A stretch of 64,000 nt of DNA from Candidatus Woykebacteria bacterium (GCA_040876345.1 JBBDPM010000006.1:456547-520546), one strand, 5' to 3'. Counted from the stretch's first letter, positions 9,833 through 26,486 are shown. The notes: generated by a model not told the origin, from the letters alone. A program made the numbers and translations.

Positions 9833-10222
9833 ATGCGTAAACTAGCTACTTTACTAGCAACAGGAAGTACTTTTTTAACACTAGCGGGCCCAGCATTTGC
9901 ACAGGCAAATATCACGGGTTTTGACTCAAGTATAGTTCCATTCCCAAACCTAGGAAAGCTTTTAAGCAACATTTTGGCCCTTCTTTTCTTTTTTGCGGCC
10001 TTACTTGCTTTTCTTTTCATCATTATCGGTGGTATTCAGTGGATTACAGCTGGTGGTGATAAAGCAGCTGCTCAAGCTGCTCGGGACCGAATTACCGCTG
10101 CGGTTGTGGGGCTCTTAATTGTGGTCGCCGCTTTTGCGATAACCTTAATACTTTCGACAGTACTAGGAATTAATCTCTTTGATTATCGCTTCCCAACTGC
10201 ACCACAAACTGCCGGTACTTAA
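9833..10222 (+). CDS. TrbC/VirB2-like pilin paralog
   Basis: Signal peptide (…AGPAFAQAN), IIGGIQWITAGGDKAAAQAARDRITAAVVGLLIVV motif. Confidence 0.6.
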   Translation: MRKLATLLATGSTFLTLAGPAFAQANITGFDSSIVPFPNLGKLLSNILALLFFFAALLAFLFIIIGGIQWITAGGDKAAAQAARDRITAAVVGLLIVVAAFAITLILSTVLGINLFDYRFPTAPQTAGT

Positions 10223-11481
10223 AAGCTGGAAATAAAGCCTGCAAATCCGCCCGATCCTGTGAGAATAGTCAGATACCAAAGCGGGACGGCAAGGTGCGAG
10301 AGCAGTGGGTAATAAAAAACGAAAAGAAGAACCACCGAAGCAGCAAACCCAATCAAGAGAAATTCCCTTTTTTCAAAATTTTCCTCGATAAATTTGGTAA
10401 CTAATAAAATTCCAAACGGAATAGCCGAGAGTAAGTAATAGGAAAAGTTGTAGCGTGGGACAAAAAACCAAGGCAACCAAAAAGTAAGGAAAGCCCCAAT
10501 CAAAAAGGTCTTCTCACTTGTTACTAAGCTCCTAGTGCGGTGAAAGACTAAATCCTTCGCTCCCTTCAGAATGAGCACAATACTTCCCCAAAAGAGAGCT
10601 GGATTAAACATAAAAAATATGGCCTGGACGCTGCCGTACTCTTGTCTACCAATGTACGAGTACAAGGGGTTTAGAAGCCACGTCATGGGGGTTAGGTGAA
10701 AAACTAAATTGTTGATTTCTTGCTTTTGCTCCACTTTTTCAAAAACCCCACCAGTGTGATAATCAAACATTTTTGCGTGAAGGTTAATTAGATCGGGAAG
10801 ACTGTGGTTAAGTAAATAGAAACTGTATGATCCTAGATAGACGACTCCCACGATTAAAAATAGCAGCCCAAGCTTCGGTAAGGACTTTAAAGGTGTAGCC
10901 CTTTTTTTCCAAAGGTAAAAGCAACTTCCAAATGCTAGCAAAAAAAGACCATTCCATTTTGAGGCGATTGATAAACCGAAGAAGATGCCCGCCAACCCTA
11001 AGTATCTAGCCTTTTCTTCCTTGAAAAAGCTCCAAAAGAAAAGAGTAGCCGCCAAGGAAAAAGTGGCTACATAAATTTCTGGGACGGCTACTCTTGAGTT
11101 AACAAACCAAGAAAACTCAAAGGTGAGGAAAAGAGCAGAAAGCGTTGGAATTAAGCGCCCACCGAACATTTTCTTGGCGAGAAGATAAATAAAGATAACC
11201 CCCAAACTACCGACTAAAACTTCCGGAATTCGCCAACCCCAAGGATTATCTCCGAAAATCTTTATTCCGGCTGCCATGAAAAGCTTGGCTAGGGGCGGAT
11301 GTTCAAAATTTGCCTCAAAATTCCCAGCGAGGAAGGAGCGCGCTGTCGGTATGTAATAGGCTCCTTCATCAAAGTAAACATCAGACGGGGAAGTTAACCT
11401 TAAAAATTTGATAGCTAGGTTAGCGATAAAAAGAGTAACAAGAACATTAATCTCTGACCTAAAAAACTTTCTCATAGGCAA
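10219..11481 (-). CDS. Polytopic GT-C glycosyltransferase, GT39/PMT_2 (ArnT/PMT-like)
   Basis: YFDEGAYY (DE motif), HPPLAKL, GWRIPEVLVGSLGVIFIYLLAKK; about 11 TM segments. Confidence 0.6.
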   Translation of the reverse strand: MPMRKFFRSEINVLVTLFIANLAIKFLRLTSPSDVYFDEGAYYIPTARSFLAGNFEANFEHPPLAKLFMAAGIKIFGDNPWGWRIPEVLVGSLGVIFIYLLAKKMFGGRLIPTLSALFLTFEFSWFVNSRVAVPEIYVATFSLAATLFFWSFFKEEKARYLGLAGIFFGLSIASKWNGLFLLAFGSCFYLWKKRATPLKSLPKLGLLFLIVGVVYLGSYSFYLLNHSLPDLINLHAKMFDYHTGGVFEKVEQKQEINNLVFHLTPMTWLLNPLYSYIGRQEYGSVQAIFFMFNPALFWGSIVLILKGAKDLVFHRTRSLVTSEKTFLIGAFLTFWLPWFFVPRYNFSYYLLSAIPFGILLVTKFIEENFEKREFLLIGFAASVVLLFVFYYPLLSHLAVPLWYLTILTGSGGFAGFISSF

Positions 11482-11556
11482 TTTGATTTTAACACAGGTT
11501 TAACTGAGTCAGACTCAGTTTGACTTTAGTAACTTACCCGTGTTAATTTGTAAAAA

Positions 11557-11973
11557 ATGGGCCGACTTAAAAATCTTTTCACCACAGCTACTCTCTTTAT
11601 CACCGTTTTGTTAGCACCAAAAACTGTACTTGCTCAGATTGGAAACAAAGTCAGCGATGATCCCGGATACACCCCTCTTAAGGACCTGGAGGTGGTTTTT
11701 GCAAATGCGTTGAATGTAATATCCATCTTAGCTGGGTTTGCGGTACTTTTGATGATCGTGATTGGAGCGTTTCGTTATATGGTGGCTCAAGGAGATCCAA
11801 AGGCAGTAACCGCCGCTCGAAGCCAAATTACTTGGGCGATCGGCGGGCTCTTCTTCATAATTGCTGGCTGGCTAGTGATACTTTTTGTTTCCCAATTTAC
11901 TGGTCTTAACCTGACCAACTTCTGTGTTGACCTACCAACCGATGATTTAACTTGCTCAATTCAAAGGCCTTAA
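11557..11973 (+). CDS. TrbC/VirB2-like pilin paralog
   Basis: Signal peptide (…VLAQIG), IGAFRYMVAQGDPKAVTAARSQITWAIGGLFFII motif. Confidence 0.6.
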   Translation: MGRLKNLFTTATLFITVLLAPKTVLAQIGNKVSDDPGYTPLKDLEVVFANALNVISILAGFAVLLMIVIGAFRYMVAQGDPKAVTAARSQITWAIGGLFFIIAGWLVILFVSQFTGLNLTNFCVDLPTDDLTCSIQRP

Positions 11974-12608
11974 CGTAGCGATCCTTTTGCAACATAGTTA
12001 ATATTCAGCGTAGCAAGATCTGCTACATCCTGTTGGGCAAACCAACCATTGGCTCTACCTTTGTAAGTAGCGAGCGGTGCTTTTTCCACAAAGACAAAGA
12101 ATTGGTCGGTTCCTGCATCGTAACTTATTCTATATCCTGATCCAACCAGAGGGAGTTTACTTCTCACATTATTCATTGCTGAGTATAGGTTAGTCTGACT
12201 TGTACCTTTGCTTTTTGTAGTTGCGTTCCACATGAAAAGAGTTTTTGATTCGTACTTAACTTTAAACTCATATTTAGCTCCTGGCTTTAAATTTGACTGC
12301 AGGCTAAAAGTGGCCTTTGTACCAGCTAAATCAAGCCCCAGAGTGAATTTCACGGCCGGTTTTGACTCTATGGAAACCTCTTTTCCGGCAATACTGGAGT
12401 CAAAATTAACCGTTATTTGCGGGGTTACACTAATTCCAGTCTGATCCACTAAAGGCTCAACACTGACAACTTTAGGCAGTTCTTCTTGGGTTTTTCCTCT
12501 GCCGGTAGGGACCTCCTTTGGCTTTGGCACCAATAAAATGCCAATTATTACAAGCCCCAGGGAAAATCCAAAGGCGGTGAGAATTATTATTCTTTTCGTC
12601 TTGTCCAT
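11970..12608 (-). CDS. Membrane-anchored hypothetical protein with Ig-like beta-rich ectodomain
   Basis: N-terminal TM; beta-rich Ser/Thr/Lys sequence; the three minus-strand genes 11970-14951 overlap by 4 bp at 13608-13611 and are separated by 1 nt at 12609. Confidence 0.45.
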   Translation of the reverse strand: MDKTKRIIILTAFGFSLGLVIIGILLVPKPKEVPTGRGKTQEELPKVVSVEPLVDQTGISVTPQITVNFDSSIAGKEVSIESKPAVKFTLGLDLAGTKATFSLQSNLKPGAKYEFKVKYESKTLFMWNATTKSKGTSQTNLYSAMNNVRSKLPLVGSGYRISYDAGTDQFFVFVEKAPLATYKGRANGWFAQQDVADLATLNINYVAKGSLR

Positions 12609-12609
12609 A

Positions 12610-13611
12610 TTAGTTCTCCTTTAAATATTTGCTGGATACAGCGTTGACCACTACTACAACCTCCACTTCTTGCTTATTGATAGTAGCACTTCCGGAAAGC
12701 TTCCAAAAGGGAAGCAGAAGGCCAGTCTCATCATCAATTAAATATACAAGTTCAATATCATTAAAGACTACATTGCTTGCCGCGCTCAAGCTCCCGCCGT
12801 TGTAGCCTCCTGGTAAAATTACCCTACCTTGCCCTGCCCTCAATCTATTTTCTATTCCTCCCAGATTAATTAAAGGGTAGGTGCCGATATTTTCCGTGTC
12901 TATTGCAACTTGCATATAAGAAAACTTAACAACCTCGCCACTCCTGGAGAGACTCGCTGATACCAAGGGGTTTAGCCCGCTATTATATATTTTGCGATCT
13001 GAAAAATTACAAGTGAGGTTTGTTAAGAATTGGTCGGCAGTTTTTGGATCATCAATAAAATCCAGCTCCAAGCCATATTCTTTCAGAGCTAGGGTTTCCT
13101 CATGCAAAAGATCTTTTTCTAGATTTAACTTTTTCAAGAAATTCTGAGCGGTCTGGGTAGCTTCGTCTAAAGTATTTATTAGCCTTTGACTTTTTGGTTT
13201 GCTGATTTTTAAATAGCTAAAGGCTCCTGTGCTAATATTGTAGTTTACAATACCATTTTTATCCTGAATCTTCCCAAACAAATCCCCACCAGTATCTTTC
13301 GATGTCTGTAATTTTCCATCAATCTTAAATACTTTTGCTAAAAATTTAGCTTTTTCAACGCTCCCCTTGGATTCTTTAACCAAAGCCACTTTAGAGCTGC
13401 CTTCCAGTTTCTTGCCGGAAATCTCTAAAGAAAAATCTTGCCTAAACCCCTCACCCACTGCTTGCGTAGGGGGCAGTTTTCCAAAGATAATTCTCGAGTT
13501 TTCCCGCAATTGATTGATAAAACTAAGCCCAATTAACACCGTCACAAACACGGAGACAAAAACGGTGATATCCAAAAAGTATTTCCTAAAAGTATCTAGT
13601 GTAAAGTTCAT
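12610..13611 (-). CDS. Membrane-anchored hypothetical protein (candidate VirB8-like T4SS component)
   Basis: Single N-terminal TM with a large extracytoplasmic domain; context only. Confidence 0.4.
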   Translation of the reverse strand: MNFTLDTFRKYFLDITVFVSVFVTVLIGLSFINQLRENSRIIFGKLPPTQAVGEGFRQDFSLEISGKKLEGSSKVALVKESKGSVEKAKFLAKVFKIDGKLQTSKDTGGDLFGKIQDKNGIVNYNISTGAFSYLKISKPKSQRLINTLDEATQTAQNFLKKLNLEKDLLHEETLALKEYGLELDFIDDPKTADQFLTNLTCNFSDRKIYNSGLNPLVSASLSRSGEVVKFSYMQVAIDTENIGTYPLINLGGIENRLRAGQGRVILPGGYNGGSLSAASNVVFNDIELVYLIDDETGLLLPFWKLSGSATINKQEVEVVVVVNAVSSKYLKEN

Positions 13612-14951
13612 TGTATTACTCCGCTTGCTCCTTCCTTACAATAATACGGGTAGCGTCCTCCCCTTACCTCCACTGGCAAGAAAGGTTCAGGACTTATCCG
13701 CACTCCTGTGGAATCAAAAACTTCGTAATGCACATGGGGAGCTGATGATGTGCCTGTATGATCCTCTGTAGCTATTGGCTGGCCGACACTAACCTGCGTT
13801 CCACGCTCGACTAAAATTGAACTATCCGCTAGGTGTCCGAAACGGACTGTGTATTGATCACCTTTTATATCAACATAATTACCGTAACCCCCAGGATCAG
13901 AGCCTATCAAATCAAGTTTTCCTGAGATAGTCGAACGGACTACATCCCCTGTGCGTATCCCGTTTGCCCAATTTGCAATAGCTTTATCGGATTGAATATC
14001 TACTCCCTGATGACGGTGATCTGACCTCTGCTCTAAGTAGCGTCCTGTGATTGTTCCCTCTACTGGGCAACGGCCGGCTGGGCTTGCCACATCTCCTACA
14101 GTCTCATCTTTTTTGTTTAGGTAAAATTGGTAAACATTTTCACAATAGGTTACACCCCTATCTTCACAAGCGCCAAGATAATGTCGGGCTGCCTCGTAAA
14201 CCTCAGCCTGCTCCCAGTCTTGAGTGGAATCGTTATAATCATATGTTGAGAAGTTTCCGCTAGAGCACTCTTCTGCATGATCTCTTGGAGTAGTATCGCA
14301 TTTAATTTTCCAGGCAGCCGCATAAACTGAGTCTGCTACATTGCAAATGTTTGAGGTGCGACTCTGCCCAGTGGCAATATTTATTGCAGTTTTATATCGC
14401 TCAAAAGTGCTTGGCAAAAACTGCATCGGGCCCCGTGCCCCCGCATCAGACTGCGCACAACCTGGTATTTCTCCATCTGGATTACTGTATAAAATTACAC
14501 TTGCTTCGGACAAAACCATAGCATCACCTAAATTCTCAGAAAGCCCTATTCCGTTCAAAACACCTGCCGGGACTTTGGCCCAAGAAGCTGCTTGCAGAAT
14601 TATATTTTCTAACTCCACTGAGCAATCATTGTGCTGCCCATCACCATCGAAATCATCCGGACTAATAAACGCTTGGCAGTAATTATCCTTTAATCCTAGA
14701 CCCGAACCCACCGGGGCTGCCACAGCCGTCCCACCTCCACCACCAATAATTCCAATGGCTACTAGAATAACAACTATAAAAATTACTATAAATAAAACTG
14801 CGGCGATTGCTGGAGCTGCCGCCCGCAGAGCCGCACTTGCCCCTAGCCTTGCCGCACCGGCTCCCCTCAGATTCATACCAGTTTGAGCAAGGTCGAGTGC
14901 ACTTTGAACGGGACTTTTTGATTTTTTTTGTGATTCTTCTTCCGCGGGCAT
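13608..14951 (-). CDS. Bifunctional cell-wall hydrolase: lytic transglycosylase (SLT) plus M23 metallopeptidase, membrane-anchored (VirB1-like)
   Basis: TM (…VLFIVIFIVVILVAIGIIGGGGG); SLT motif AGARGPMQFLPSTFERY; M23 motifs HQGVDIQS … HVHYEV. Confidence 0.65.
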   Translation of the reverse strand: MPAEEESQKKSKSPVQSALDLAQTGMNLRGAGAARLGASAALRAAAPAIAAVLFIVIFIVVILVAIGIIGGGGGTAVAAPVGSGLGLKDNYCQAFISPDDFDGDGQHNDCSVELENIILQAASWAKVPAGVLNGIGLSENLGDAMVLSEASVILYSNPDGEIPGCAQSDAGARGPMQFLPSTFERYKTAINIATGQSRTSNICNVADSVYAAAWKIKCDTTPRDHAEECSSGNFSTYDYNDSTQDWEQAEVYEAARHYLGACEDRGVTYCENVYQFYLNKKDETVGDVASPAGRCPVEGTITGRYLEQRSDHRHQGVDIQSDKAIANWANGIRTGDVVRSTISGKLDLIGSDPGGYGNYVDIKGDQYTVRFGHLADSSILVERGTQVSVGQPIATEDHTGTSSAPHVHYEVFDSTGVRISPEPFLPVEVRGGRYPYYCKEGASGVIQ

Positions 14952-15011
14952 TTATCTATAATTCTATCCATTAACAAACTCAAACACAACTGTCTTAAAC
15001 ACGTGTTTTCG

Positions 15012-15039
15012 TTGACAATCGTACATTCTTAGATATAAG
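15012..15039 (+). promoter_or_regulatory. Sigma70-like promoter (TTGACA-N16-TATAAG) ending 10 nt before the ATG at 15050
   Basis: Consensus -35; 16-nt spacer; predicted leader of 0-4 nt. Confidence 0.45.
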
Positions 15040-15049
15040 ATTAAATCAA

Positions 15050-16885
15050 ATGTGCCTGCCCAGGAAATTTAAAATCTTTCTTCTTGTTACAACTCTCAGC
15101 CTTTTTCTAATCAGTACTCTGACTCCAGCCTTTGCATCTCACGATAAAACCCAAGGCGCACAACAATCCCAAAACACAATCGAGCCAATTCCAACTCCGA
15201 ACCCGGACGCCCCGCAAATTCAACCGATACCAAAACCAACCGCTGATCCCAAAATCCGTCAGGCTTTAGGCTGGGAAGATTTAAATCCAATTAGTTGGCC
15301 TGGAGCAGTCTATGACTTTCTTCGTGGGGCAACCGCCAAGGCAGTAAAAGGCGCTTTTTATGCCAGTCAAGATGCGGGATTTGAACAAATCAATAATTGT
15401 TCGGGGGCTGAATTAGTTGATAGCCAACGTCTTAATAACAACGATCCAGAGGACACTTGTATCGAGAAAAAAATAAACCGCGCTGCAATGGGAGTTAGTA
15501 ATTTAAGCGAAGTGCCGAACCCAGGATTACTTGACTACCTAGGTTATGTAGGGTCTCAATCTTTAACATTACCTGTTCCCATCAATTCAACTCAATACTT
15601 CGCCTCTATTAATCCTTTTAAAGAAGCTCGTGCTGCAGCAGGGGCTGAAGAGCTAGCAAACAACAATATACTACTAAGTATTTGGCGAACGTCCAGGAAT
15701 ATTGCTTTTGCTCTCTCAGCAGCGGTTTTAATGGTTGTTGGTTTTATGATCATGTTCCGTTGGAAGCTAGACCCACGCACCACAGTTACAATTCAAAATT
15801 CACTACCTAGAGTAGTGGTGGCCTTGATTCTCATAACTTTTAGCTTCGCGATCGCTGGTCTTATGATTGATTTTACGAGATTGATCACTGAGGTTGTAAC
15901 CTCACTTGTCGCAGTGCCGGGTGAGGCTCTTTTAGGCTTGTCTGCCATTGGTTTGCTAGTACTTGCAGGTGGAAGCCTTAGCCTTGCCACCGGTGGTCTA
16001 TTCGCGTTGTTTATTCTACTTCTTGGTTTAATTTTGTCCATCATGATTCTAATCGTGTTTATTGTGCTGATCTTTAAACTGCTCATGCGCTATATAACTT
16101 TTCTAATTCTCACTATTTTTGCGCCGTTCTTTTTCTTAGCCGGCGCTTTGCCAGGAGGTGAGGGGATTATTTTTAACTGGTTCAAGCGCCAAACAGCCGC
16201 CCTTTTGGCGGTACCGTTTACCGCTCTTTTTGTGAATCTTTCATTCGCAATCGGTTTTTCTGGTTTCACCGGGCAAGGAGATTTGAATTTTCCCTCTCCC
16301 TGGCCAGTTGTGGGTGGTTTCGCTAACACTGCAGTTGGGTTTGCCGTTCTTGGCCCCTTGATAGGAATTGGCTTATTCTTTTTCGCTACAAAAGTTCCGG
16401 ACATTGTTGATGAGGTCTTTGGAATCAAAGAGCTTGGGGCTAGAAAAGGAATCGGTCCTGGAATAATAGTTGGTGCGCCTATTGGCGGTCTCCAAGCTGC
16501 GGGTAATATATCAAGGGGTGTTGAAGGTGTGCAACGTGGTGTTAAGGTTGGGAAAGATGTGGCTGGGAATTTATCCAGAAGAGGGTGGGGGCCAGAACAA
16601 ACTCAAACTGAAGGCGGTAATGTGAGCATTAGTAACCAGCCAACTCCTGGTCCAGCCGCTAGAACAGCAAGGCAGTTAGCCAGGACAATTTTGCGGCCTT
16701 TTGCTCCAAAAGATATGAGTGGTAGAAAGCCCTGGCAGAATATTTCCATGTCGGAAGCAGATTTTGCAGAACGCCAGAGGAGAATACAAGAACAAATTAA
16801 GGCGGCTGCTGCGAGAGGCCGTCGTGGAGGCGGTCCGCCTCCAACCGAAGATCAAGACGAAAGAGGCCCCCTAGAAACACCCTAG
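15050..16885 (+). CDS. Polytopic membrane protein, VirB6/TrbL-like
   Basis: Signal peptide, extracytoplasmic domain of about 170 aa, at least 6 TM helices, Gly/Pro/Arg-rich hydrophilic C-terminus. Confidence 0.5.
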   Translation: MCLPRKFKIFLLVTTLSLFLISTLTPAFASHDKTQGAQQSQNTIEPIPTPNPDAPQIQPIPKPTADPKIRQALGWEDLNPISWPGAVYDFLRGATAKAVKGAFYASQDAGFEQINNCSGAELVDSQRLNNNDPEDTCIEKKINRAAMGVSNLSEVPNPGLLDYLGYVGSQSLTLPVPINSTQYFASINPFKEARAAAGAEELANNNILLSIWRTSRNIAFALSAAVLMVVGFMIMFRWKLDPRTTVTIQNSLPRVVVALILITFSFAIAGLMIDFTRLITEVVTSLVAVPGEALLGLSAIGLLVLAGGSLSLATGGLFALFILLLGLILSIMILIVFIVLIFKLLMRYITFLILTIFAPFFFLAGALPGGEGIIFNWFKRQTAALLAVPFTALFVNLSFAIGFSGFTGQGDLNFPSPWPVVGGFANTAVGFAVLGPLIGIGLFFFATKVPDIVDEVFGIKELGARKGIGPGIIVGAPIGGLQAAGNISRGVEGVQRGVKVGKDVAGNLSRRGWGPEQTQTEGGNVSISNQPTPGPAARTARQLARTILRPFAPKDMSGRKPWQNISMSEADFAERQRRIQEQIKAAAARGRRGGGPPPTEDQDERGPLETP

Positions 16886-16937
16886 AATAAGAGAGAGGGC
16901 TGATCCGATACGATGCGGAAACAGCCCCCAATGCCTG

Positions 16938-19706
16938 TTAGGCAGCCTTGTCAGCTATGAACTTATAGAACTCCTCCTTTTCCAGTCGGGGGATGGTCCA
17001 TTTCCCGAAGTCCTCCCTGACTAATGTGTCGAAGCGCTCCTCGAGCACCTTCTCGGTCACCGTCTCCTCTTGATCGAATACTAGTGACCAATCGATCTCG
17101 GTCATTTTCGCTTCGCCAAACCTCTCCCTCAGCCCCAGGACCTTACCCTTGGACCATTCCACGGAGATCTCCGTGAGCGCGTCGAGCACCAGGAACAGAG
17201 GCATCCCGCCCTTGATCTCTGACTGGGCCGACTTAATGAGGTTTTCGATGTCGCGCAGGTAATGCGGTGTGCGTGTCCAGGAGCGTGCCCAGAACACCTG
17301 GAGGTCGATCTTCCCACACCGCCAGGCAAAGTCGTACGGGCGCTCCATGCTTTGTTGCATTTTGTGCTCGACTTCGGGGTCACCGGCCCTGTTGTACCGA
17401 ACCCCATACTGGCATTCGATCGCTACGTGGGCCGCATCTGGGAAAGTGAACCCACGCACACCCCTCTTCACCCTGGACTTGAAGACCATGTACAGGCTGA
17501 GGATGTCGTCGCAATGAGCGTGAAGCTCATCCAGTTCGTCGGCCATCGCCCAGATCACCTCAGGGGAGAGATCCTCAATCAGGCGCATGATCTTGGGCCA
17601 GACGAAGATCTCGCGGTTCTTCACAGCGCGTCGGAACACCCTGCGCAGACGCCGAAGGATCGGGCCCTTGGGCTGGTTGTTGAAGATCCGTTCCAGGACC
17701 TCCGTTTGGTGGAAGAACGTAACCTCGCGCCCACTCTTACGCGCTAGGTAGGCACTGCTGTCCTCGTCCTCCCCTGCTTCGCGGTCGAGTATGTTTTCTG
17801 GTACCACCTCCTTAACGATGGTGAACTTCGGGGTTCCATCCTCATTCTGGATGACACTAGCAACCCGGACGTATAGTTCGTTCATGATAGTGTCCGAATG
17901 GAGTCCCTTTTGGTTCTTGCCGATGTCCCGCGGGGCGATGAAGAAGAGTTCCTCCTGCTCGAGGATCTGCAACTCACCCCGTGAGTAGTTTCGCACCAGC
18001 CTAGTCTTCTCATGAAGATCTTTGCTGGTGATGATAGCACCCTCCCTAGCCGACACAATGGCACCGCGAATCATTGCGGCACCCTTGCAAACATCCTCAC
18101 GGCGACCGCCAAAGAGGCTGTAGTAAGTGCTGATCGTGTCCATCGGCGTTTCAGAGGCGTAGTTGGCAGTCGAGCGCATCATCGTGCGCCGGCGGTTCAT
18201 AGAACTCCGCCAAGCCCGCTTCTGTTCACTTGTCGCGTTCTCTGGAACTTCCCCCGGGTGTGGGTAGCGTTTGTTTAGCTCCCACCATACCCAGAAGTCG
18301 CCCCAGGTCTGCCGACTCTGACGCCCGCCCCAGTCTTCCCTCAATGCGGCAGCTACGTCTCTGGTGTCATACTCACCACCACCGTACTTCCAGACGCCGT
18401 TCCGGCTCATCCGGAAGTGGCCGTTGAAGCCGATGAGGTCGCGAATCTCCTCATAAGTCGGGTAGTCGATTAGGGAGTCGCTGACGTCCATCTTCTTGTA
18501 CCCAACCGCCCGAGGAGGACGAACTATCCAGCGGATTGAGTCCAAAGCTCGGAACCGTGCCCAAGCCCTGTCCCAGTTCGTCACTGAGCAAGTTACGTCA
18601 GCGTTCGGGCTGAACTGGTCGTACACCATGTCAAACCGGCGGGGATCCTCGACCCTCTCATCGATAAAGTCAGGGCCCCTGTCCGGTCCCCACCAGTCCA
18701 GGTGCTTCTCCAACTCGTCCATCACTTCGCCGTTTTCTGGATCCCTGCCCAGCTTGCGGCTAAGATTCTGGACTATGTGTGCCCGAAGCTTAAGCTTCCA
18801 GTCGTAGCGGCGCTGCCCGTCAAAGAACGCCCTGTCGGCGACGAGGCTCACGAAGTGAAGGAACTCGAAGTCGTTTAGGGCGCCGATTGTGACAACACGC
18901 TCCTTGGTGTTGATGTCGTAGACCGTGAGCCGATCGTACAGCTCACGGATTCCACCACGGGCTGCTCGGCGGACTGCTCGAGGAGCCTTCTCCAGACCAC
19001 CATAAGGCAGAAGCTTGTCGGGGATCACCCAGTTGGGGTTTTCCCTCTGGAACTTCCGCATCCAGTTACGCAGGAGGTGCTTGAACACGCGGGGCGTCTT
19101 GTTGAACACCTCGCGCTCTTGAGTCTCCCTCTCCTGGTGCGTGTCGTCCACCCACCAAAGAGTTTCGAACACGATGTCCTCGTTGGCAAGCAAGATCGAC
19201 CACTCGTGCTCGTTAGGCTCTTTATTAACGACAGTGGCGACGACCTCGAAGTCGACTCCCTCAACCTCCTTATCCTTCGGGGGAAGGTTGAGAGAAATTC
19301 TGCCGTCGGTGAAAACCCGGACCCTCACCCGTTTCTTGGTTTTTTTGCCTGCCTCCTCTACCGGCTTACCGTCCCCACCAATTATGAGGTCTCCCTCCCC
19401 GTCCTTCTTGTATACTTTTTCGGTTATTGCAACCCGCCGGTAGAAGTATCTCTTGAAGGCGGTGACCGGGACTAGGGTGCGGATGATTGTGTACCGCACA
19501 TCTTGGAAGTTGAAGTTGCGATGGTCCGCCTGCTTGGTACCGAGAATGCCCCAAAGCGCAGTGTCTATGGTCGCTACGAAACCGATCTGACCGTTAACGA
19601 TCTCATCAGTGCTAAACCAGCGCTTTTGCTCGGTCCAGCGCACTATACCGAACTCGTTTTCCTCCTGTTCACCGTTTTCGCCTTCCGGTTCTTCGCCGTC
19701 TAGCAT
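16938..19706 (-). CDS. Large orphan protein (922 aa) of unknown function in a GC-rich island
   Basis: Single uninterrupted ORF with an AAGGAGGT RBS 8 nt upstream of the ATG. GC is about 60% against a 40% background. The protein is Trp/Arg/Asp/Glu-rich and has no recognisable catalytic motif (no Walker A, GDD, YxDD or HUH motif seen). Reverse-strand ORFs in this span are GC-induced artefacts. Confidence 0.55.
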   Translation of the reverse strand: MLDGEEPEGENGEQEENEFGIVRWTEQKRWFSTDEIVNGQIGFVATIDTALWGILGTKQADHRNFNFQDVRYTIIRTLVPVTAFKRYFYRRVAITEKVYKKDGEGDLIIGGDGKPVEEAGKKTKKRVRVRVFTDGRISLNLPPKDKEVEGVDFEVVATVVNKEPNEHEWSILLANEDIVFETLWWVDDTHQERETQEREVFNKTPRVFKHLLRNWMRKFQRENPNWVIPDKLLPYGGLEKAPRAVRRAARGGIRELYDRLTVYDINTKERVVTIGALNDFEFLHFVSLVADRAFFDGQRRYDWKLKLRAHIVQNLSRKLGRDPENGEVMDELEKHLDWWGPDRGPDFIDERVEDPRRFDMVYDQFSPNADVTCSVTNWDRAWARFRALDSIRWIVRPPRAVGYKKMDVSDSLIDYPTYEEIRDLIGFNGHFRMSRNGVWKYGGGEYDTRDVAAALREDWGGRQSRQTWGDFWVWWELNKRYPHPGEVPENATSEQKRAWRSSMNRRRTMMRSTANYASETPMDTISTYYSLFGGRREDVCKGAAMIRGAIVSAREGAIITSKDLHEKTRLVRNYSRGELQILEQEELFFIAPRDIGKNQKGLHSDTIMNELYVRVASVIQNEDGTPKFTIVKEVVPENILDREAGEDEDSSAYLARKSGREVTFFHQTEVLERIFNNQPKGPILRRLRRVFRRAVKNREIFVWPKIMRLIEDLSPEVIWAMADELDELHAHCDDILSLYMVFKSRVKRGVRGFTFPDAAHVAIECQYGVRYNRAGDPEVEHKMQQSMERPYDFAWRCGKIDLQVFWARSWTRTPHYLRDIENLIKSAQSEIKGGMPLFLVLDALTEISVEWSKGKVLGLRERFGEAKMTEIDWSLVFDQEETVTEKVLEERFDTLVREDFGKWTIPRLEKEEFYKFIADKAA

Positions 19707-20532
19707 CGTGTAAACCTCCTTGGGTTGCTAAACCCCTCAGGCAAGAGCGCTAGCGCAACAAGACTGAGAGGACGCTGTCCAGCATACGTTCGTGAGGGTT
19801 GAAAACCCCTGAGCGGTAATACCGCTTTGGAGCCTATTCCCTGTATCACTTGGTGTATGCTAGAGCAGCAGCAACACCAAGGGGAGTTTGAATGTTAGTT
19901 CTTGGATTTAGGATCTAGGATTTTAACTTAAATCCAACATCCTGAATCTAATATCCAAAATCCCCCTGGCGTTACCCCGCTGTCTAGCGGAAACCAAGGA
20001 AGTCTTTTTGTTCGTTTTACTTAATTTTTGGCGAATCGTAATGTTATAGGTTTCCAATTCGCCTTATATTCGCTTGTTAAGGTACTCACCATCGCAAGTT
20101 TCAACTTACGAAAATGGGCTCTGACTAACGACCTTTCGTTAACCAGAGCCCACCTTCGGGGACATATGCAAAAACTCACCATGGAGGTGGCTCTGGTATA
20201 ATTAATTTCTTAATTCTAAGTTCTGCTTCGTTCATTGTTCTTAATTAACTACTTATTACTAATAACTAAGTTGCTAGTTTAGCACAAATCAGCTTCAATG
20301 TCAATCCTATAGGATCCTCGGTGATTAAATTCATTCGCTTCGCTCAAGTAATTTAGGTACTCTTGGGTTCTGCGGGCGGGCGTAGATTCTAGGTTTCTAT
20401 TCGTGTACTTTACGATACAGTATGAGTCGGTTGATTTCGAATCTACTATCGACCATAATATACCCTACAGTTTAATCAAAGGTATTTTTCGGCGAAGAAT
20501 TCTCGAAGCCAGCTGAAGGTTAATCAAACAAT

Positions 20533-21162
20533 ATGCAGCAGCATCCTGTCCCGCAGAACATAACCGGGTTTGAATTTAAGCTTATCGGCTTTTTGACGAT
20601 TAAGCAATTTGCTTACCTTGCGGTTGCTGGAATTTTTAGCTTCGTCTTTTTTATTTCCCCAATACCTGTTCTAGTTAAGATCATTGTTATTTCTCCAATT
20701 GCTCTCTTTGGTGCTGCCCTTGCCTTTGTGCCGGTAAACGGCCTGCCTTTTGAAAAGTGGCTAGTTGTTTTTATAAGCTCAATTTACTCTCCTTCAAGGA
20801 GGGTCTGGCACAAAGGCCTTAAGGAAATAAGTTTTCTGGCTCCGTCCTTTTCACGCTATCTAAAAAGACCCCCTGGACCAGCGCCAAAAGTGTTGCCCGA
20901 CAAATCTCGCCTGGAAAGCTTTTTAACCCAGATGCGGGGAAGGGGTGATAAAGCCGCCGTTGACAGAATAGAGGAGCAGCGGATTTCCCAAATAGACTTT
21001 AGTGCGACCGTGCCCCACTTCAGTGAAATTGATAATGAAGGTGAGTTAGAACCAACTTATAGCAAGGGGTCTGCGGGAAACAAACTGCCTGATATTTATG
21101 ACTATCCAGAAGCGCAAATAAATCCGGTCTCTACGAGCAGTGAGGTACAAAAAGATGAATAG
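20533..21162 (+). CDS. Small membrane protein with N-terminal TM hairpin (VirB3/PrgI-like candidate)
   Basis: Two or three TM helices in the first 90 aa, hydrophilic tail; located upstream of the VirB4-like gene. Confidence 0.4.
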   Translation: MQQHPVPQNITGFEFKLIGFLTIKQFAYLAVAGIFSFVFFISPIPVLVKIIVISPIALFGAALAFVPVNGLPFEKWLVVFISSIYSPSRRVWHKGLKEISFLAPSFSRYLKRPPGPAPKVLPDKSRLESFLTQMRGRGDKAAVDRIEEQRISQIDFSATVPHFSEIDNEGELEPTYSKGSAGNKLPDIYDYPEAQINPVSTSSEVQKDE

Positions 21163-22750
21163 TAATACTGAAGCTGAGGTCAAATTTACATACCCGGGTA
21201 AGAATCTCGCCCATCGTTTTAGACCGACTGAATCTATCCGCCAAATAATTGAGCCTTTGATAAAAAGGGCCCACCCCTTTGCTTCTCAAGTGAACTTTCA
21301 TCCAGTAGCCACACTGAACCTGCCGGATAAAAACGTCTACGTCCGGCCCATTCGCAACTTGCAACCAAGACATATATCACCTCTGCCTCTTCAAGGTCCT
21401 TTTGCCTTACCAATAAGGGGGGAGAGGACTTTCGAGCTCTCCGCGGACCTTCAAGACCAAATCCAAAAGCGGGTTGGTGTGGTAATGAGCCCTTACGAAG
21501 TCGACCCCAAAACGCGACCGGTACCGCCCGGACTTACGCCGCAGCCAGAACCCAACCCACCAATTCAAGTAAACAAACCGCAACAGAGTGTTCCTGTATC
21601 AGCGCCTATTCTATCCACCCAAACTCAAGTGGCTGTAGCGCCGCCAACTCAAGTTACAAGCTTTCAGACTAATCACCTACCAACTACACCCTCAACCCCA
21701 GTTGCCACCCAGGCGCCGCTTCCTAGAGTGCTGTCACCAACATCTCAGGTTAGTCAAGTACCGGTGGTCCAAATACCCCAAACCATTACTACTCCGCAAG
21801 CCCCACGTGCCCAGACTATTCAAACTAGCCAACCACCTCTAGCTCCAGTGCCTGTTCAAAAACCGATTGCTTTTTCACCAACTAATCAGGCCCTGATTGA
21901 TGATGTTGCCAAACTAAAGGAGGAACTTCTTAAAGAGTCCATTACAACCAATGTTACTCAAGAGAGGATCGGTGAACTTTCAAATAAATACCAATCTCAA
22001 ATTGTCAATTTAATTAACCAAAACAACTACCTGATTTCCGAAATTAACAATTTTAAAGCGAAGCTCACCGATGAATCTAGAAAAAGGCAGGCCTCAGAAA
22101 ATCAACTGTCAGTAGTTACCTCCCAATTAAAAAATGAGGTTGAAAAGCTCAAGATTGAGCGCGACGGACTTCTTGGTAAATTGAAAACGTCTGAGACCCA
22201 GTTTAGAAACTACCACGAAGCCCAGGAAAAAAATCTTCCCACTAAAATTGAGCTTACCCAGCTAAACGCCAAGATTGCGGAGTTGGAAAGGGAAAAATCA
22301 GAATCAGAAACAAAAGCAATTAAGCTCAAGAGCTTAGTTAATGAACTCCAAGAAAAAGGTGCCCAAAAACACTCTCAACTAAAAGAGATGGTGATGCCCA
22401 CACTGTCTTTTGGTAAATCTCAATATGATGCGCCTGTCAGAGTGATACAACCTACTCAAGCAATTGGTAAAATGGCTCCCGCCCTAACCACAATACCAAA
22501 CGTTGTGAGCGGCATAATCAAAGACCGAAACGGTCTTCTACTAACTGATGTGGTGGTAGTGGTAAAGGACGCTTCAGGGAATCCGGTTAGAGCTCTAAAA
22601 TCTAATAAAATTGGTCAGTTTGCGATATCGACTCCGCTGCCCGAGGGGACTTACACAATGGAACTCGAAAGAGAAGAGAACGAATTCGACGTGGTTCAAA
22701 TAAAGCTGGGGGGGAAAATAGTACCCCCAATTGAGATAAGAGCCCGCTAG
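21155..22750 (+). CDS. Pro/Gln/Thr-rich, coiled-coil protein with C-terminal carboxypeptidase-regulatory-like (transthyretin-fold) domain
   Basis: GAGGT RBS 8 nt before ATG 21155; low-complexity P/Q/T region; heptad coiled coil; C-terminal sequence GIIKDRNGLLLTDVVVVVKDASGNPV…. Confidence 0.5.
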   Translation: MNSNTEAEVKFTYPGKNLAHRFRPTESIRQIIEPLIKRAHPFASQVNFHPVATLNLPDKNVYVRPIRNLQPRHISPLPLQGPFALPIRGERTFELSADLQDQIQKRVGVVMSPYEVDPKTRPVPPGLTPQPEPNPPIQVNKPQQSVPVSAPILSTQTQVAVAPPTQVTSFQTNHLPTTPSTPVATQAPLPRVLSPTSQVSQVPVVQIPQTITTPQAPRAQTIQTSQPPLAPVPVQKPIAFSPTNQALIDDVAKLKEELLKESITTNVTQERIGELSNKYQSQIVNLINQNNYLISEINNFKAKLTDESRKRQASENQLSVVTSQLKNEVEKLKIERDGLLGKLKTSETQFRNYHEAQEKNLPTKIELTQLNAKIAELEREKSESETKAIKLKSLVNELQEKGAQKHSQLKEMVMPTLSFGKSQYDAPVRVIQPTQAIGKMAPALTTIPNVVSGIIKDRNGLLLTDVVVVVKDASGNPVRALKSNKIGQFAISTPLPEGTYTMELEREENEFDVVQIKLGGKIVPPIEIRAR

Positions 22751-22752
22751 CT

Positions 22753-23484
22753 ATGGCTACGAGTAAAAAGATCTATACAACACAGGAACATTTAGATGTC
22801 GATGACATTAGGGACTCTCTCGTGGTGCTAAAAAATGGCGAGGCTGTCGCCATGATTCAAACTAGCGCCATCAATTTTGACCTTCTTTCTGAAAGAGAGC
22901 AGGACGCCATGATCTTTGCTTATGCCGCCCTACTAAACTCGCTTACATTTCCAATCCAAATTTTAGTGAGATCAAAGCGTCTGGACATTTCTAATTATCT
23001 TGATAATCTAGCTCTAGCCCGGCGCCAAGTTAAAAACCCCCTTTTAGCTGGGCAAATTGACAAATACGCTTTCTTTATACGAGATCTAGTTTCCCAAAAC
23101 CAAGTGCTAGATAAAAGATTTTACATAGTGGTACCCTACCTTGCAATTAGCCTGGCCCAACTAAAAACCGCTGGACTAGATTTACTAGGCAAAAAGGCCC
23201 CACCCACCAACAAATGGGTGACCCTAGAAAAGGCTAAGGTAAATCTAGAGCCTAAAATCGCTCACATTACTAAGCAGTTAAACCGAATCGGGATTAAAGC
23301 TAAAGCCCTTAACACTGAGGAGCTAGTTGAGCTTTTCTATGATCTTTACAATCCAGAGATGGTCGGTGAGCAAAAGGCAGCCCTATCTCCTGAGGAGTAC
23401 ACCACGCCAATAGTTGAGCCGGCTGTGAGCCCAGTAATTGAAGAGGGTGGGCAAAATCAAAATGTAGTCAGGGAGCAACCATGA
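22753..23484 (+). CDS. VirB4/TraE N-terminal-domain-like protein (possible split VirB4)
   Basis: LVVLKNGEAVAMIQTSAINFDLLSEREQDAMIFAYAALLNSLTFPIQILV resembles the N-terminus of Gram-positive VirB4 ATPases; ATGA overlap with the next ORF. Confidence 0.45.
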   Translation: MATSKKIYTTQEHLDVDDIRDSLVVLKNGEAVAMIQTSAINFDLLSEREQDAMIFAYAALLNSLTFPIQILVRSKRLDISNYLDNLALARRQVKNPLLAGQIDKYAFFIRDLVSQNQVLDKRFYIVVPYLAISLAQLKTAGLDLLGKKAPPTNKWVTLEKAKVNLEPKIAHITKQLNRIGIKAKALNTEELVELFYDLYNPEMVGEQKAALSPEEYTTPIVEPAVSPVIEEGGQNQNVVREQP

Positions 23485-25376
23485 GTATCAATCCTTTCAA
23501 AAAAAAGGCAGTTATAGATCCCCAAGAAACCGAGCTCGCTCAGACTCGCGCTAAAGTCACTCAAGTGCTTGGTAGGGGGATGACCGACGTAAAAGATGTT
23601 ATTGCCCCCTCTGCAATAGAGGTGGACTTCGACTATATAAAAATTGGCGAGACTTACTTCCGCACGTTATTTGTGGTTGGCTACCCAAGATTTGTCGGCG
23701 CTAATTGGCTCTCTCCCATAATTAACTTTGACCACACCTTAGATATTTCCTTTTTCTACTACCCCGTCGAGTCTAAAGGGATTTTGGATGATCTTAGGAG
23801 AAAAATAGCGGAGATGGAAGCAACTCTTGAATCAGATCTTGAAGCCGGTAGAGTCCTTGACCCCGGAGTAAGAATTGCTCTCGAGGATGCTCAAGCTCTC
23901 CAGGAGCAGCTTACGGCTGGCGTCGAGAGGTTTTTTCAATTCTCGTTTTACATTACTATCCCCGCTTTTTCCTTGGAGGAGCTCTCATCAGTGACAAAAC
24001 AAGTTGAGTCAACTCTTGGATCTCTTCTGGTAATTTCGAAACACGCCACTCTGCAGCAGGAAAGGGCCTTTCAATCAGTACTACCAACCTTCACCGACAA
24101 ACTCTTGGTTACTAGGAATATGGACACCACTTCACTGGCCACAACCTTTCCTTTTACTTCAAGTGAGCTAACTGCCAACAAGGGAATTCTTTACGGGATA
24201 AACGAGCACAACGGTTCCCTAGTAATCTTTGATCGCTTTAGCCTGGAGAATGCAAACAGTGTTGTCTTTGCAAAAAGTGGGGCTGGAAAAAGCTACTTAG
24301 TTAAGCTTGAGGTGCTTCGCCAACTTATGTTTGGGACTGAGGCGATTGTAATTGATCCTGAGGACGAATATATAGCCCTGGCTAATGCGATCGGTGGAGA
24401 AGTTATAAAATTTAAGGCGGCCGAGCAAGTTAAAATTAATCCTTTTGATCTTTCCGGAATCTATCAAGAAGGGGAGAACGAGCTGGGTCTAAAAATCCTT
24501 ACTCTACACTCTTTATTTAGAGTCATGATGGGAACCCTCACACCGACTGAGGACGCTCTCCTTGATAGGGCGCTGGTCGCTACTTACAAATTGAAGGGCA
24601 TCACGCCAGATCCCGCAACCCAAACTAAAGAACCACCGGTGATGGAGGACCTTTACAATGTTTTGCTAAACATGGGGGAGCCTGAAGCCAAAAATATGGC
24701 TGCCAGACTTGAGAAATTTATAAGAGGATCACTGTCTGGTATATTCGACCAACAAAGCACTATAAATATAAAGAACACCTTCACCGTTTTTTCTATACGA
24801 GACATGGAGGATGAACTACGACCAATCGCTATGTTTATTATCCTCGATTTTATCTGGACGCGGATTAAAAAGGAGCTGAAAAGGCGGATATTAGTTGTTG
24901 ACGAGGCTTGGTATCTGATGAAACATCAAGACTCGGCAGCCTTTCTTTATTCAATCGCTAAAAGAGCCCGAAAATATTTTCTGGGACTAACCTCAATAAC
25001 TCAAGACGTTGAGGATTTTCTTGGAAGCGACTACGGTAAGGCAATTGTCACCAACTCTTCGTTACAATTTTTGCTTAAACAATCAACTGCTTCAATCGAT
25101 AAGCTTGCTGAAGTGTTTTACCTTTCGGAGGGGGAGAAAAACCTTCTCCTTTCCTCAGAAATAGGGGAGGGTCTTTTCTTTGCCGGCCAAAATCACGTTG
25201 CGATTCGAATTCAAGCCGCGCCTCATGAACACGTTCTAATTACCTCAAACCCCGAAGAATTAAACCGAAACGAGGCTCTTGCAGCTGCACAACAGAATGC
25301 TTCTCAAAACCCCACTACAACGCAGGTGGCCGCTCAAGATCAAAAAACCAACCCTTACCCAGAAAACCCAGTCTAG
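23481..25376 (+). CDS. VirB4/TraE-like conjugation ATPase
   Basis: Walker A AKSGAGKSY, Walker B ILVVDEAWYLM; 631 aa, similar in size to pIP501 TraE-type VirB4. Confidence 0.75.
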   Translation: MSINPFKKKAVIDPQETELAQTRAKVTQVLGRGMTDVKDVIAPSAIEVDFDYIKIGETYFRTLFVVGYPRFVGANWLSPIINFDHTLDISFFYYPVESKGILDDLRRKIAEMEATLESDLEAGRVLDPGVRIALEDAQALQEQLTAGVERFFQFSFYITIPAFSLEELSSVTKQVESTLGSLLVISKHATLQQERAFQSVLPTFTDKLLVTRNMDTTSLATTFPFTSSELTANKGILYGINEHNGSLVIFDRFSLENANSVVFAKSGAGKSYLVKLEVLRQLMFGTEAIVIDPEDEYIALANAIGGEVIKFKAAEQVKINPFDLSGIYQEGENELGLKILTLHSLFRVMMGTLTPTEDALLDRALVATYKLKGITPDPATQTKEPPVMEDLYNVLLNMGEPEAKNMAARLEKFIRGSLSGIFDQQSTINIKNTFTVFSIRDMEDELRPIAMFIILDFIWTRIKKELKRRILVVDEAWYLMKHQDSAAFLYSIAKRARKYFLGLTSITQDVEDFLGSDYGKAIVTNSSLQFLLKQSTASIDKLAEVFYLSEGEKNLLLSSEIGEGLFFAGQNHVAIRIQAAPHEHVLITSNPEELNRNEALAAAQQNASQNPTTTQVAAQDQKTNPYPENPV

Positions 25377-25379
25377 ACT

Positions 25380-26486
25380 CTAGCGCTTGACTTCAGACAC
25401 GCCCCCATCCTTGACTGAATAAATCTTGGCTCTCTCCAAAACTTTATTGGGGAAAAATTCCTTAGAGGTAGCCGTGATAATACTCTGCTGACGATAGACT
25501 ACTTCTAAGATATGTTCCCGATTGTTTTTATCAAATTCGCTCAGAATGTCGTCTAAAAGTAGGGTGGGTTTCTCGCCCCGGACTTTTTCGATGTAATTAG
25601 TCTCCACCAATTTCAGAGCGAGAGTGGCAATACGCTGCTCGCCACGAGATCCAAAAGTCCCAATATCTTCTTCCAAAATTTCATTGTCCTTGAAAATCTC
25701 CAGCAACACTCGGAAATCATCCCGGTGGGGCCCAAAACTAGTTAATCCTCTTTCAACATCAATCTTTTTTCTCTTAGCTAGATTCTGGGCGAAAAAATCC
25801 CCTATTTCTTCATCTTTAACCACTGCTTCAGCGAAAGGGCGATAATTTATTCTAATCTCGGATCCAGAGAGTCCCCGCCCAATTTTTTTCAATAAGTTGT
25901 TGGCGTAATGATAGAAAGAGATCCGTGCTTTCCAGACTAAGTTTCCAGAATCTACTAACTGCCTGTCCCAAACGCTAAAGTCTTGGGGGAATCCCTCTCT
26001 TTCAAGCCAAAGCAACTTATTCCTTCGTTTCATTACTTGACCAAACCTGGCTAGGTGGTAAAGATAGGTTTTATCTGTCACCGATAAAACTTGATCTAAA
26101 AAACGCCGCCGCCTATCTGGCGGCCCTGAAACAACCTCGATGCTCTCCGGAGAAAACAAAACGATTGGGAACAGCCCAATTATGCGCTGCTTTTTGTTTT
26201 CATTGTTGTCCAAAAAAACTCTCTTGCCCTCTCTCGTGACGATAGTTTTTATCTTGTGGGGCCCAACCGTTCCCGCTAAAAGGGCGTGCTCGGATCCCCA
26301 GTTGATCAACTCTAAATCTTTACCAGCTCGAAATGACTTAGTGGTTGAGAGAAGATGGACTGCCTCGATAATGTTAGTTTTGCCTTGCGCGTTATCGCCC
26401 ACGAACAAATTTATCTTATCGCCGAAGGAGATTTTTAGATTTTTAAAGTTTCTAAAATCGGAAATTTCTAGATTCTCAATCCACAT
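25380..26486 (-). CDS. recF: DNA replication and repair protein RecF
   Basis: N-terminal …NFKNLKISFGDKINLFVGDNAQGKTNIIEAV… (Walker A); synteny recF-dnaN-dnaA. Confidence 0.85.
   Translation of the reverse strand: MWIENLEISDFRNFKNLKISFGDKINLFVGDNAQGKTNIIEAVHLLSTTKSFRAGKDLELINWGSEHALLAGTVGPHKIKTIVTREGKRVFLDNNENKKQRIIGLFPIVLFSPESIEVVSGPPDRRRRFLDQVLSVTDKTYLYHLARFGQVMKRRNKLLWLEREGFPQDFSVWDRQLVDSGNLVWKARISFYHYANNLLKKIGRGLSGSEIRINYRPFAEAVVKDEEIGDFFAQNLAKRKKIDVERGLTSFGPHRDDFRVLLEIFKDNEILEEDIGTFGSRGEQRIATLALKLVETNYIEKVRGEKPTLLLDDILSEFDKNNREHILEVVYRQQSIITATSKEFFPNKVLERAKIYSVKDGGVSEVKR

Follow-up and report, generated by a model that had tools for sequence, protein, structure and literature searches.

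A GC-rich, probably accessory gene and its conserved structured leader in the type IV secretion locus of Woykebacteria-like Patescibacteria

The stretch of DNA considered here, referred to as the window, is 64,000 nt long, comes from a Candidatus Woykebacteria bacterium (GCA_040876345.1, JBBDPM010000006.1:456547-520546) and carries a type IV secretion system (T4SS) locus whose genes adjoin recF-dnaN-dnaA. The locus encodes five T4SS_pilin proteins, a PMT_2 glycosyltransferase, an M23/SLT hydrolase, a VirB6-like protein, PrgI, a 536-aa protein, a TrsD/TraC-like protein and VirB4; the window also contains tmRNA, tRNAs, GroEL and LeuRS, which are chromosomal markers. Within the locus lies a minus-strand open reading frame (ORF) rich in guanine and cytosine (GC), 16938-19706, called X here, which encodes a 922-aa, apparently soluble protein with an acidic N-terminus and the C-terminal residues -KAA. 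A metagenome-assembled genome of Candidatus Woykebacteria encodes the X protein with 100% identity, as a hypothetical protein, on a contig of 586 kb. X is probably an accessory gene of a chromosomal, oriC-proximal T4SS locus of Woykebacteria-like Patescibacteria, placed behind a regulated leader. Its atypical base composition is likely to be a maintained trait of the gene family and not the mark of a recent transfer.

X probably forms a transcription unit of its own between a convergent and a divergent neighbour. The convergent gene (15050-16885, plus strand), whose stop codon is 52 bp from that of X, encodes a 611-aa polytopic membrane protein with nine predicted transmembrane (TM) segments and has host-like GC at third codon positions (GC3 0.37). 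The divergent gene, prgI (20533-21162, plus strand), is the first of an operon that continues with the genes for the 536-aa, TrsD-like and VirB4 proteins. A first-pass annotation of the window had called these neighbours VirB6-like and VirB3-like. The second label is confirmed by a match of PrgI to Pfam PF12666 (E 4.9e-12), and the first, for which a Pfam scan gave no match, rests on topology and conserved position. Domain scans with Pfam and NCBIfam detected no gene for a type IV coupling protein (T4CP) or relaxase in the locus.

The base composition of the window changes abruptly at X. Overall GC is about 0.37-0.48, with 0.57-0.58 at 17-19 kb; in 200-nt windows, values of 0.41-0.49 rise to 0.53-0.605 from about 16.8 kb and fall to 0.36-0.42 past 19.9 kb. 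The high GC thus covers X plus the first 180-280 nt or so on its 5' side and then drops. This profile and the ORF call bear out the abrupt step and the single long minus-strand ORF of the first-pass annotation. Its figure of about 60% GC was right in kind and somewhat high for the ORF, which has a GC content of 0.567. Most of the excess is carried by third codon positions (GC1 0.590, GC2 0.388, GC3 0.723), and so the shift is mainly synonymous. The shift is also highly significant: with z = 8.0, the GC3 of X stands far above that of the window's 54 other ORFs (mean 0.382, sd 0.043; highest value 0.469), and its tetranucleotide distance is the largest of any 2.8-kb stretch in the window (0.535 versus a median of 0.202). 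The protein is indeed rich in Arg (9.9%), Glu (9.5%), Asp (7.2%) and Trp (3.1%), and X has the strong ribosome-binding site of its own that was noticed at the outset (AAGGAGGT at 19721-19714, 7 nt before the ATG). The long reverse-frame ORFs nested within X do not keep their positions among orthologs and for that reason were not accepted as genes, consistent with the view that they are artefacts. Two further GC-rich islands lie in the window, at 76-501 and at 48.75-50.7 kb.

Composition steps at both ends of a single gene could in principle mark a chimeric junction produced by assembly or binning, as the first-pass annotation warned. However, window positions 10938-25706 recur over 14,769 bp, with 0 mismatches and with both GC boundaries spanned, in a Logan assembly made independently (SRR27977661), an identical X protein occurs on six contigs (up to 586 kb), and the same architecture is found in 12 other genomes. 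X is therefore almost certainly not an artefact of this kind.

Relatives of X are few and closely confined. An exhaustive phmmer search of 1.84 billion representatives returned only 18 hits, which is enough to withdraw the word orphan from the initial description. P0014 and P0018, which matched in several stretches, were suspected to be repeat hits and left out. Each of the 16 remaining, aligned hits has its best match in an X protein encoded in a Patescibacteria T4SS locus, no homolog outside such loci was found among the 1.84 billion representatives, and a word-indexed profile search added nothing new. For the genomic context, 80 loci anchored on VirB4 were fetched (loci are labelled L001 and so on). 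In Woykebacteria-like loci a single ORF of 890-1190 aa occupies the same place and orientation as X, and an iterative hidden Markov model together with hhalign ties the same-slot ORFs of L005, L006, L007, L010, L012 and L014 to X. X lies inside the T4SS locus in every genome examined, and in the same slot in 13 related loci. Gene order is the same wherever the context could be read (L002, L083, L085, L087, L088 and L090): dnaA-dnaN-recF, then VirB4, the TraC-like gene, a gene of 5xx-7xx aa and PrgI, followed after about 0.8-1 kb by the oppositely oriented X and then the convergent VirB6-like gene. By these comparisons, the synteny of X within the T4SS locus is conserved.

The same slot is empty (less than 400 bp from VirB6-like gene to PrgI) in at least 11 other, more distant Microgenomates-type loci, and most of the 80 loci either lack X or have other ORFs, without detectable relation to it, in its stead. 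Other opposite-strand ORFs of 590-1310 aa fill the slot in L018, L019, L021 and L023 (Curtissbacteria-type) and in L024, L027, L069, L078 and L079; no GC excess is seen in these loci. With hhalign, no relation was detectable between X and the large slot ORFs of Curtissbacteria-type and other loci, except for L014, and the slot ORFs of L018, L021, L024, L027 and L079 had no significant match in Pfam. Judged from these gene arrangements, the space between the VirB6-like gene and PrgI seems to behave as a variable cargo slot of Microgenomates T4SS loci. A small extra ORF of 165-269 aa stands between the slot gene and the VirB6-like gene in three loci (L010 1377-1898, L014 3846-4343 and L024 3403-4212, minus strand) and is absent from the window; it could be a candidate partner or immunity gene. 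In L003, whose VirB4 is 81% identical to that of the window, the X-like ORF (31-1266, minus strand) ends after 411 aa near the contig start and may be a pseudogene or a short form.

Within the family, sequence divergence is high. Three subfamilies can be distinguished: A (the window, L001, L002 and L083), B (L006, L010 and L085) and C (L005, L007 and L012). The VirB4 proteins of the window and L002 are 80% identical, as against 39% over 603 aa for their X proteins; for the window and L005, identity is 84-85% in VirB4, 64% in PrgI and 43% in the VirB6-like protein, and the two X proteins cannot be aligned by BLAST. X evolves much faster than the genes of the secretion machine and out of step with its neighbours. 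By this divergence and its distribution, X belongs to a small, fast-evolving family restricted to Patescibacteria, and it is probably a resident, lineage-specific accessory gene.

The composition of X can be followed through this family. In 13 of 13 loci the GC3 of X is higher than the mean for the flanking T4SS genes and higher, too, than their maximum, with an excess of +0.12 to +0.32 (mean +0.20, Wilcoxon p = 2.4e-4), so the excess is family-wide. Because it is a trait of the whole family, the composition shift cannot be used to date an insertion. X orthologs share only 15-55% amino acid identity, so that synonymous sites are saturated, and the GC excess must therefore be actively maintained.

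These data bear directly on the proposal of a recent transfer, also made in the first-pass annotation, and on its fuller form, in which X comes from a donor of about 58-60% GC and has not yet ameliorated. The GC3 deviation and the extreme tetranucleotide distance are what such a gene would show, and the genome does take up GC-rich DNA. The evidence for uptake is the second GC-rich island of the window (48750-50700, plus strand; ORFs 48791-49627 and 49755-50645; GC about 0.59-0.60, GC3 0.68-0.72), which encodes a MaoC/MFE-2 hydratase and a short-chain dehydrogenase/reductase (SDR). The best non-self relatives of the hydratase are about 71% identical, and the named ones belong to Dehalococcoidia, Chloroflexi and Binatota (about 60-71%); this is a classical island of horizontal gene transfer (HGT) in a fatty-acid-poor genome from the candidate phyla radiation. 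The third-position composition of X (A/C/G/T 0.12/0.38/0.34/0.16) and its codon preferences are close to those of the MaoC/SDR island (0.13/0.38/0.32/0.17), and the codon shift of X spans all codon families and is uniform along the gene. Highly expressed host genes show another pattern (GroEL has a GC3 of 0.37).

Yet the resemblance of X to classical HGT islands, of which the MaoC/SDR island is the genuine example in the window, stops at strong composition contrast with sharp borders. X differs in its synteny and GC enrichment in all related genomes examined, in its lack of mobility hallmarks and in having no donor lineage. Searches around X found only short chance matches as candidate flanking direct or inverted repeats or att sites, no tRNA near the island, and no recombinase or integrase domain or mobility gene bounding it. 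In 13 related loci the slot is occupied by this one family, in each case GC-enriched between flanks of low GC, and a homolog family in related low-GC genomes is what the first-pass annotation had said would speak against its proposal. Orthologs also share the promoter, upstream ORF and leader described below, and the empty slots occur only in more distant lineages. Recent acquisition is thus largely refuted by synteny and must be considered very unlikely.

The preferred reading, that the atypical GC is a maintained family trait, has to accommodate several observations that weigh against it. The 13 loci are related, so that the GC3 and covariation statistics are not fully independent. The codon usage of X is nearly indistinguishable from that of the bona fide foreign MaoC/SDR island, and X alleles may therefore have a foreign reservoir. 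The coding region is only modestly more structured than shuffled sequences (mean z -1.2), and so an account of the high GC based on mRNA stability is weakly supported. The maintaining force could be selection on mRNA or decoding rate, GC-biased gene conversion (gBGC) linked to allele exchange, or an unsampled reservoir.

Allele exchange can be put in a stronger form, in which X is repeatedly replaced within Patescibacteria, by homologous recombination in its conserved flanks, and gains its GC from gBGC or from a GC-richer donor pool. L005, the locus with the VirB4 closest to that of the window, carries an X of another subfamily, and the division into subfamilies A, B and C does not follow similarity in VirB6 or VirB4. 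The rise in GC goes no further than the X transcription unit, and some Patescibacteria T4SS loci (L057, L059 and L061) are GC-rich overall (GC about 0.56). On the other hand, the GC-rich loci sampled lack X, and there is no GC enrichment in the pilins, the VirB6-like gene and the 536-aa gene, which are likewise hypervariable genes of the locus. The subfamilies diverged long ago (about 25% identity), and so no recent swap is documented. Furthermore, a GC3 excess of +0.2 to +0.3 is far beyond the effects that gBGC is usually reported to have in bacteria (for example, Lassalle et al. 2015). Recurrent replacement is therefore unlikely as the explanation, without being negligible.

By analogy, the codons of X might instead be adapted to translation in a foreign cell, with X being delivered, as DNA or mRNA, by a T4SS that has no relaxase and then expressed in a host cell of higher GC. 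The T-DNA genes of Agrobacterium are tuned to the recipient in this way. If true, such expression would explain why only X keeps host-unlike codons in every lineage, though we regard it as a far-fetched possibility. A milder version would have the GC-rich body stabilise a translationally silent, stored mRNA, which the leader would switch on at host contact.

The region upstream of X provides a second argument that X is a resident and regulated gene. A regulatory region of about 530-600 nt (window 19707-20304, minus strand) is conserved in L001-L003, L005-L007, L010, L012, L083, L087, L088 and L090. At its 5' end is a sigma-70-like promoter, TTGACA-17-TAAACT with a TG extension (20276-20304, minus strand), which is the only promoter-like site on the X strand between PrgI and X and is near-consensus in L003 and L090. 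Downstream lies a putative upstream ORF (uORF; 20176-20235, minus strand) of 19 codons, encoding the Lys/Ile/Leu-rich leader peptide MNEAELRIKKLIIPEPPPW*. It is followed by a G+C-rich terminator-like structure (20105-20160, minus strand), whose hairpin (GGTGGGCTCTGG, loop, TCAGAGCCCA) and T-tract span 20158-20109. The 5' arm of the terminator is also complementary to CCAGAGCCACC at the end of the uORF, which would form a putative antiterminator. At the corresponding place, nine of the ten loci examined have a putative uORF of 17-19 codons with a Lys/Ile/Leu-rich product, together with a G+C-rich hairpin and T-tract, and the hairpin is also found in L087, L088 and L090. The uORF 3' end and the terminator arm co-vary, by eye, between clades (CCAGAGCC/GGCTCTGG versus CCTCAGAAG/CTTCTGAGG, also given as CCUCAGAAG/CUUCUGAGG), and the putative antiterminator duplexes have energies of -7 to -17 kcal/mol.

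Between the terminator and the leader core is a conserved block (20005-20104, minus strand) that consists of CCTTAACAaGCGAATAtAAGGCGAAT, a hairpin and ATTCGCC, followed by the A/C-rich linker AACGAACAAAAAGAC. The leader core itself (19707-20004, minus strand) is highly structured. The 311 nt on the 5' side of the X ATG have a minimum free energy of -138 kcal/mol, compared with -88 +/- 5 for dinucleotide shuffles (z = -9.8), and for the corresponding 300 nt of 12 other loci z is -4.7 to -10.6 with mononucleotide shuffles; the L014 leader gives -3.4 to -4.4. In the predicted fold, an anti-Shine-Dalgarno segment (anti-SD; 20004-19992) pairs with the region of the Shine-Dalgarno (SD) sequence AAGGAGGT of X (19714-19721). 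The 5' arm of helix P2 (19974-19962) pairs with a shared arm, CCCCTTGGTGTTG (19884-19872), and the helix is capped by a variable hairpin (19961-19885) that is 29-94 nt long and present in ten of ten loci examined. The shared arm has an alternative partner in the P3 3' arm, ACACCAAG (19856-19849), beyond which further hairpins lead to the SD; all of these elements lie on the minus strand. L003 has a shorter version of the leader, whose shared segment passes straight into the SD-like CAAGGAGG.

Comparative data support both alternative helices. Whole-leader MAFFT alignments were misregistered, and anchored blocks from nine loci were used instead. P2 is 93.5% paired, with compensatory changes at 5 of 12 pairs, P3 is 75% paired, with compensatory changes at 6 of 12 pairs, and the core of the anti-SD/SD helix is well paired. 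None of 500 shuffles reached the covariation scores of 0.33 and 0.26, which exceed most slid controls two- to five-fold. Among 82 loci, the core leader motif occurs only on the 5' side of X, with a single exception that is probably a chance match. Metagenomes scanned for the 17-mer CCCCTTGGTGTTGCTGC gave chance hits: among the 80 matches listed, none had the extended motif or an X homolog. A search of Rfam 15 over the leader returned nothing at gathering score, the sole match at E < 1 being a chance miRNA match. On these comparisons, the leader is a conserved structured element with covarying alternative helices and, as no Rfam family matches it, a candidate for a new cis-regulatory RNA.

Some features of these data weigh against the preferred reading. 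The uORF peptides contain no clear tandem codon run that would mark a sensed amino acid, and the antiterminator pairing is only 6-9 bp long and not uniform in register. In addition, the helix blocks (alignment A5) were chosen via per-sequence duplex predictions, which biases the percentages paired.

Long inverted repeats just upstream of a gene could also be read at the level of DNA. The structured region would then be an oriT, and X, with its invariant Tyr, Arg and Glu residues (see below), a novel DNA-processing enzyme analogous to a relaxase. However, the helices contain G-U pairs on the sense strand, which become C-A mismatches on the other strand, and the SD/anti-SD pairing and the uORF-linked terminator with its U-tract are features of RNA control. 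These G-U pairs, the SD occlusion and the U-tract terminator therefore argue for RNA-level rather than DNA-level structure. X itself has no match to HUH, Rep_trans or other relaxase (MOB) catalytic domains by Pfam, NCBIfam or PDB sequence and fold comparison, and a relaxase analogue is a highly improbable identity for it.

Read as RNA, the leader resembles two classes of known control elements. The trp, his, leu and ilv operons have leader-peptide transcription attenuators, and ermC-type leaders, RNA thermometers and riboswitch platforms sequester the SD. Like the attenuators, the X leader has a short putative uORF directly before an intrinsic terminator, the 5' arm of which may pair instead with a segment of the uORF; like the SD-sequestering leaders, it has a downstream helix that occludes the SD, and one of its segments has two mutually exclusive conserved partners. 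It differs from both in lacking an Rfam family and an obvious single regulatory codon run, in placing two control layers in series over about 530 nt, and in having as its target a T4SS-locus protein instead of a biosynthetic operon.

In the model that we infer from these features, transcription from the single promoter would mostly terminate after the uORF. Ribosomes held off the uORF 3' end, for example by stalling at upstream Lys, Ile or Leu codons, would allow the antiterminator to form and transcription to read through. The read-through transcripts would carry a leader of about 300 nt in which the anti-SD segment holds the AAGGAGG site paired, and a rearrangement of the shared segment between P2-type and P3-type pairing could then free the SD for translation. 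With attenuation and SD sequestration combined, X would be made only under a specific signal.

No known family or fold matches the sequence of X. A Kyte-Doolittle scan found no hydrophobic or TM segment, and X has no Walker A motif. Searches of Pfam, NCBIfam and PHROGs gave no relevant match (one weak PHROG of unknown function, E 0.002), the 14 X relatives had no relevant match in Pfam, and PDB sequences searched with the single protein and with a profile gave 0 hits at E <= 10 and no fold match. The first-pass annotation had likewise seen no recognisable motif in the protein, which agrees with the lack of Walker A and of any HUH match by profile or fold. Its suggestion of a defence gene found no backing, since 0 PADLOC families matched X at E <= 1. 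The X proteins, apparently soluble and about 900-1200 aa long, are thus without a recognised domain or fold.

Certain positions in X are nonetheless strictly kept. About ten residues are invariant in an alignment of eight sequences (R198, P205, W338, E419, R422, G460, G461, R506, G556 and Y574), and region 406-619 is the best conserved out to L014. The C-terminus ends in -AA in 7 of the 13 full-length members, from all three subfamilies (KAA, RAA, MAA, LAA and VAA; the window at 16938-16946, L005, L006, L007, L010, L088 and L090), and in 0 of 56 other window ORFs. This tail could be degron-like or related to export, and is only a hint of a translocation signal. The tmRNA tag of the window genome ends in YAFA.

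Among the functional classes, that of a T4SS cargo, effector or other host-interaction factor is tentatively considered the most likely for X. A conditionally deployed cargo or effector fits better than a core subunit because X is apparently soluble, accessory, hypervariable, embedded in the locus and, by the proposed model, tightly repressed. The first-pass annotation had listed a cargo or effector beside a recently transferred element; the first of these is the most plausible class and the second is very unlikely given the synteny. The bacteria-killing X-Tfe proteins of Xanthomonas, the Legionella Dot/Icm substrates and the Bartonella Bep proteins are all T4SS effectors. X is like them in being apparently soluble, linked to a T4SS, lineage-restricted, fast-evolving and patchy in distribution, and in having no hydrophobic N-terminal (signal-like) or TM segment by hydropathy scan. 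It differs in having no XVIPCD, BID or other known translocation domain, no recognisable toxin domain and, in the window, no adjacent immunity gene. Two further points count against an effector. The central invariant core suggests an enzyme or a fixed binding interface, neither of which is specific to effectors, and we know of no secretion signal that has been defined for Patescibacteria T4SS.

One might instead expect a gene with a fixed position inside the locus to encode a part of the machine. Known T4SS components (VirB/Prg/Trs/Tra proteins or a T4CP) were rejected as identities for X, which matches no such profile, does not co-occur with VirB4 throughout the clade and has no NTPase motif or membrane anchor. 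A cytoplasmic, non-secreted machine part or adaptor with a structural, regulatory or coupling role, for example a substitute for the missing nearby T4CP, would fit the fixed position, the conserved central core with its invariant residues and the lack of a T4CP or relaxase gene in the locus, which is also described in PMC12102498 (as judged from its abstract, impact statement and section 13). However, many loci that retain VirB4, TrsD, PrgI and VirB6 have no X or another ORF in its place, X lacks any NTPase motif or TM segment, it evolves far faster than the machine genes, and multi-layer repression would be unusual for a stoichiometric subunit. A machine part is thus improbable, though worth keeping in mind.

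The T4SS locus itself is already known. In gene set and layout the window locus is the same as the chromosomal, MPF-FATA-like T4SS of Patescibacteria described by Quinonero-Coronel et al. 2025 (PMC12102498), to judge from the same parts of that paper. Common to both are VirB4, the TrsD/TraC-like N-terminal homolog, PrgI/VirB3, a divergent VirB6-like gene, an M23/SLT hydrolase, VirB2-like pilin arrays, proximity to dnaA and the lack of a relaxase. In these parts the T4SS is reported to be essential for epibiotic growth in Saccharimonadia and to be without a relaxase, and no substrate is named for it. The X gene, its GC anomaly and its leader are not mentioned in the abstract, impact statement or section 13, and X matches no component profile that these parts show to have been used, nor any in Pfam or NCBIfam. 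Full-text literature searches gave no description of the X gene, the family-wide GC anomaly or the leader.

X is a concrete candidate for what the Patescibacteria T4SS handles, being apparently soluble, hypervariable, by the proposed model tightly repressed, and encoded in the locus, and its leader offers a handle on the timing of T4SS deployment. The family also shows that atypical GC can be a stable, gene-specific trait over deep divergence, so that not every GC step should be taken for recent HGT. For reduced genomes, it offers a case in which selection or biased conversion acting on synonymous sites can be tested.

Several other features of the window deserve mention. VirB4 is encoded as two overlapping plus-strand ORFs, 22753-23484 for a 243-aa TrsD/TraC-like N-terminal homolog and 23481-25376 for a 631-aa ATPase, an arrangement that is reported to be typical for Patescibacteria and not a frameshift. 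The five divergent VirB2-like T4SS_pilin genes are arrayed at 7074-10222 and 11557-11973 (plus strand); they have low GC3 (0.29-0.42) though hypervariable, and one of them (8081-8989) also has a dockerin-type domain. The likely oriC, at about 29113-29753, lies between dnaA (27742-29112, minus strand) and yidC (29754-30479, plus strand) and coincides with the minimum of the cumulative GC skew. The third GC-rich piece (76-501, plus strand; GC 0.589, GC3 0.76), at the edge of the window, adjoins two tRNA-Ser genes and the tmRNA gene. Its product is the C-terminal part of a fatty-acid desaturase (PF00487), so that a second lipid-metabolism gene of the window may be foreign.

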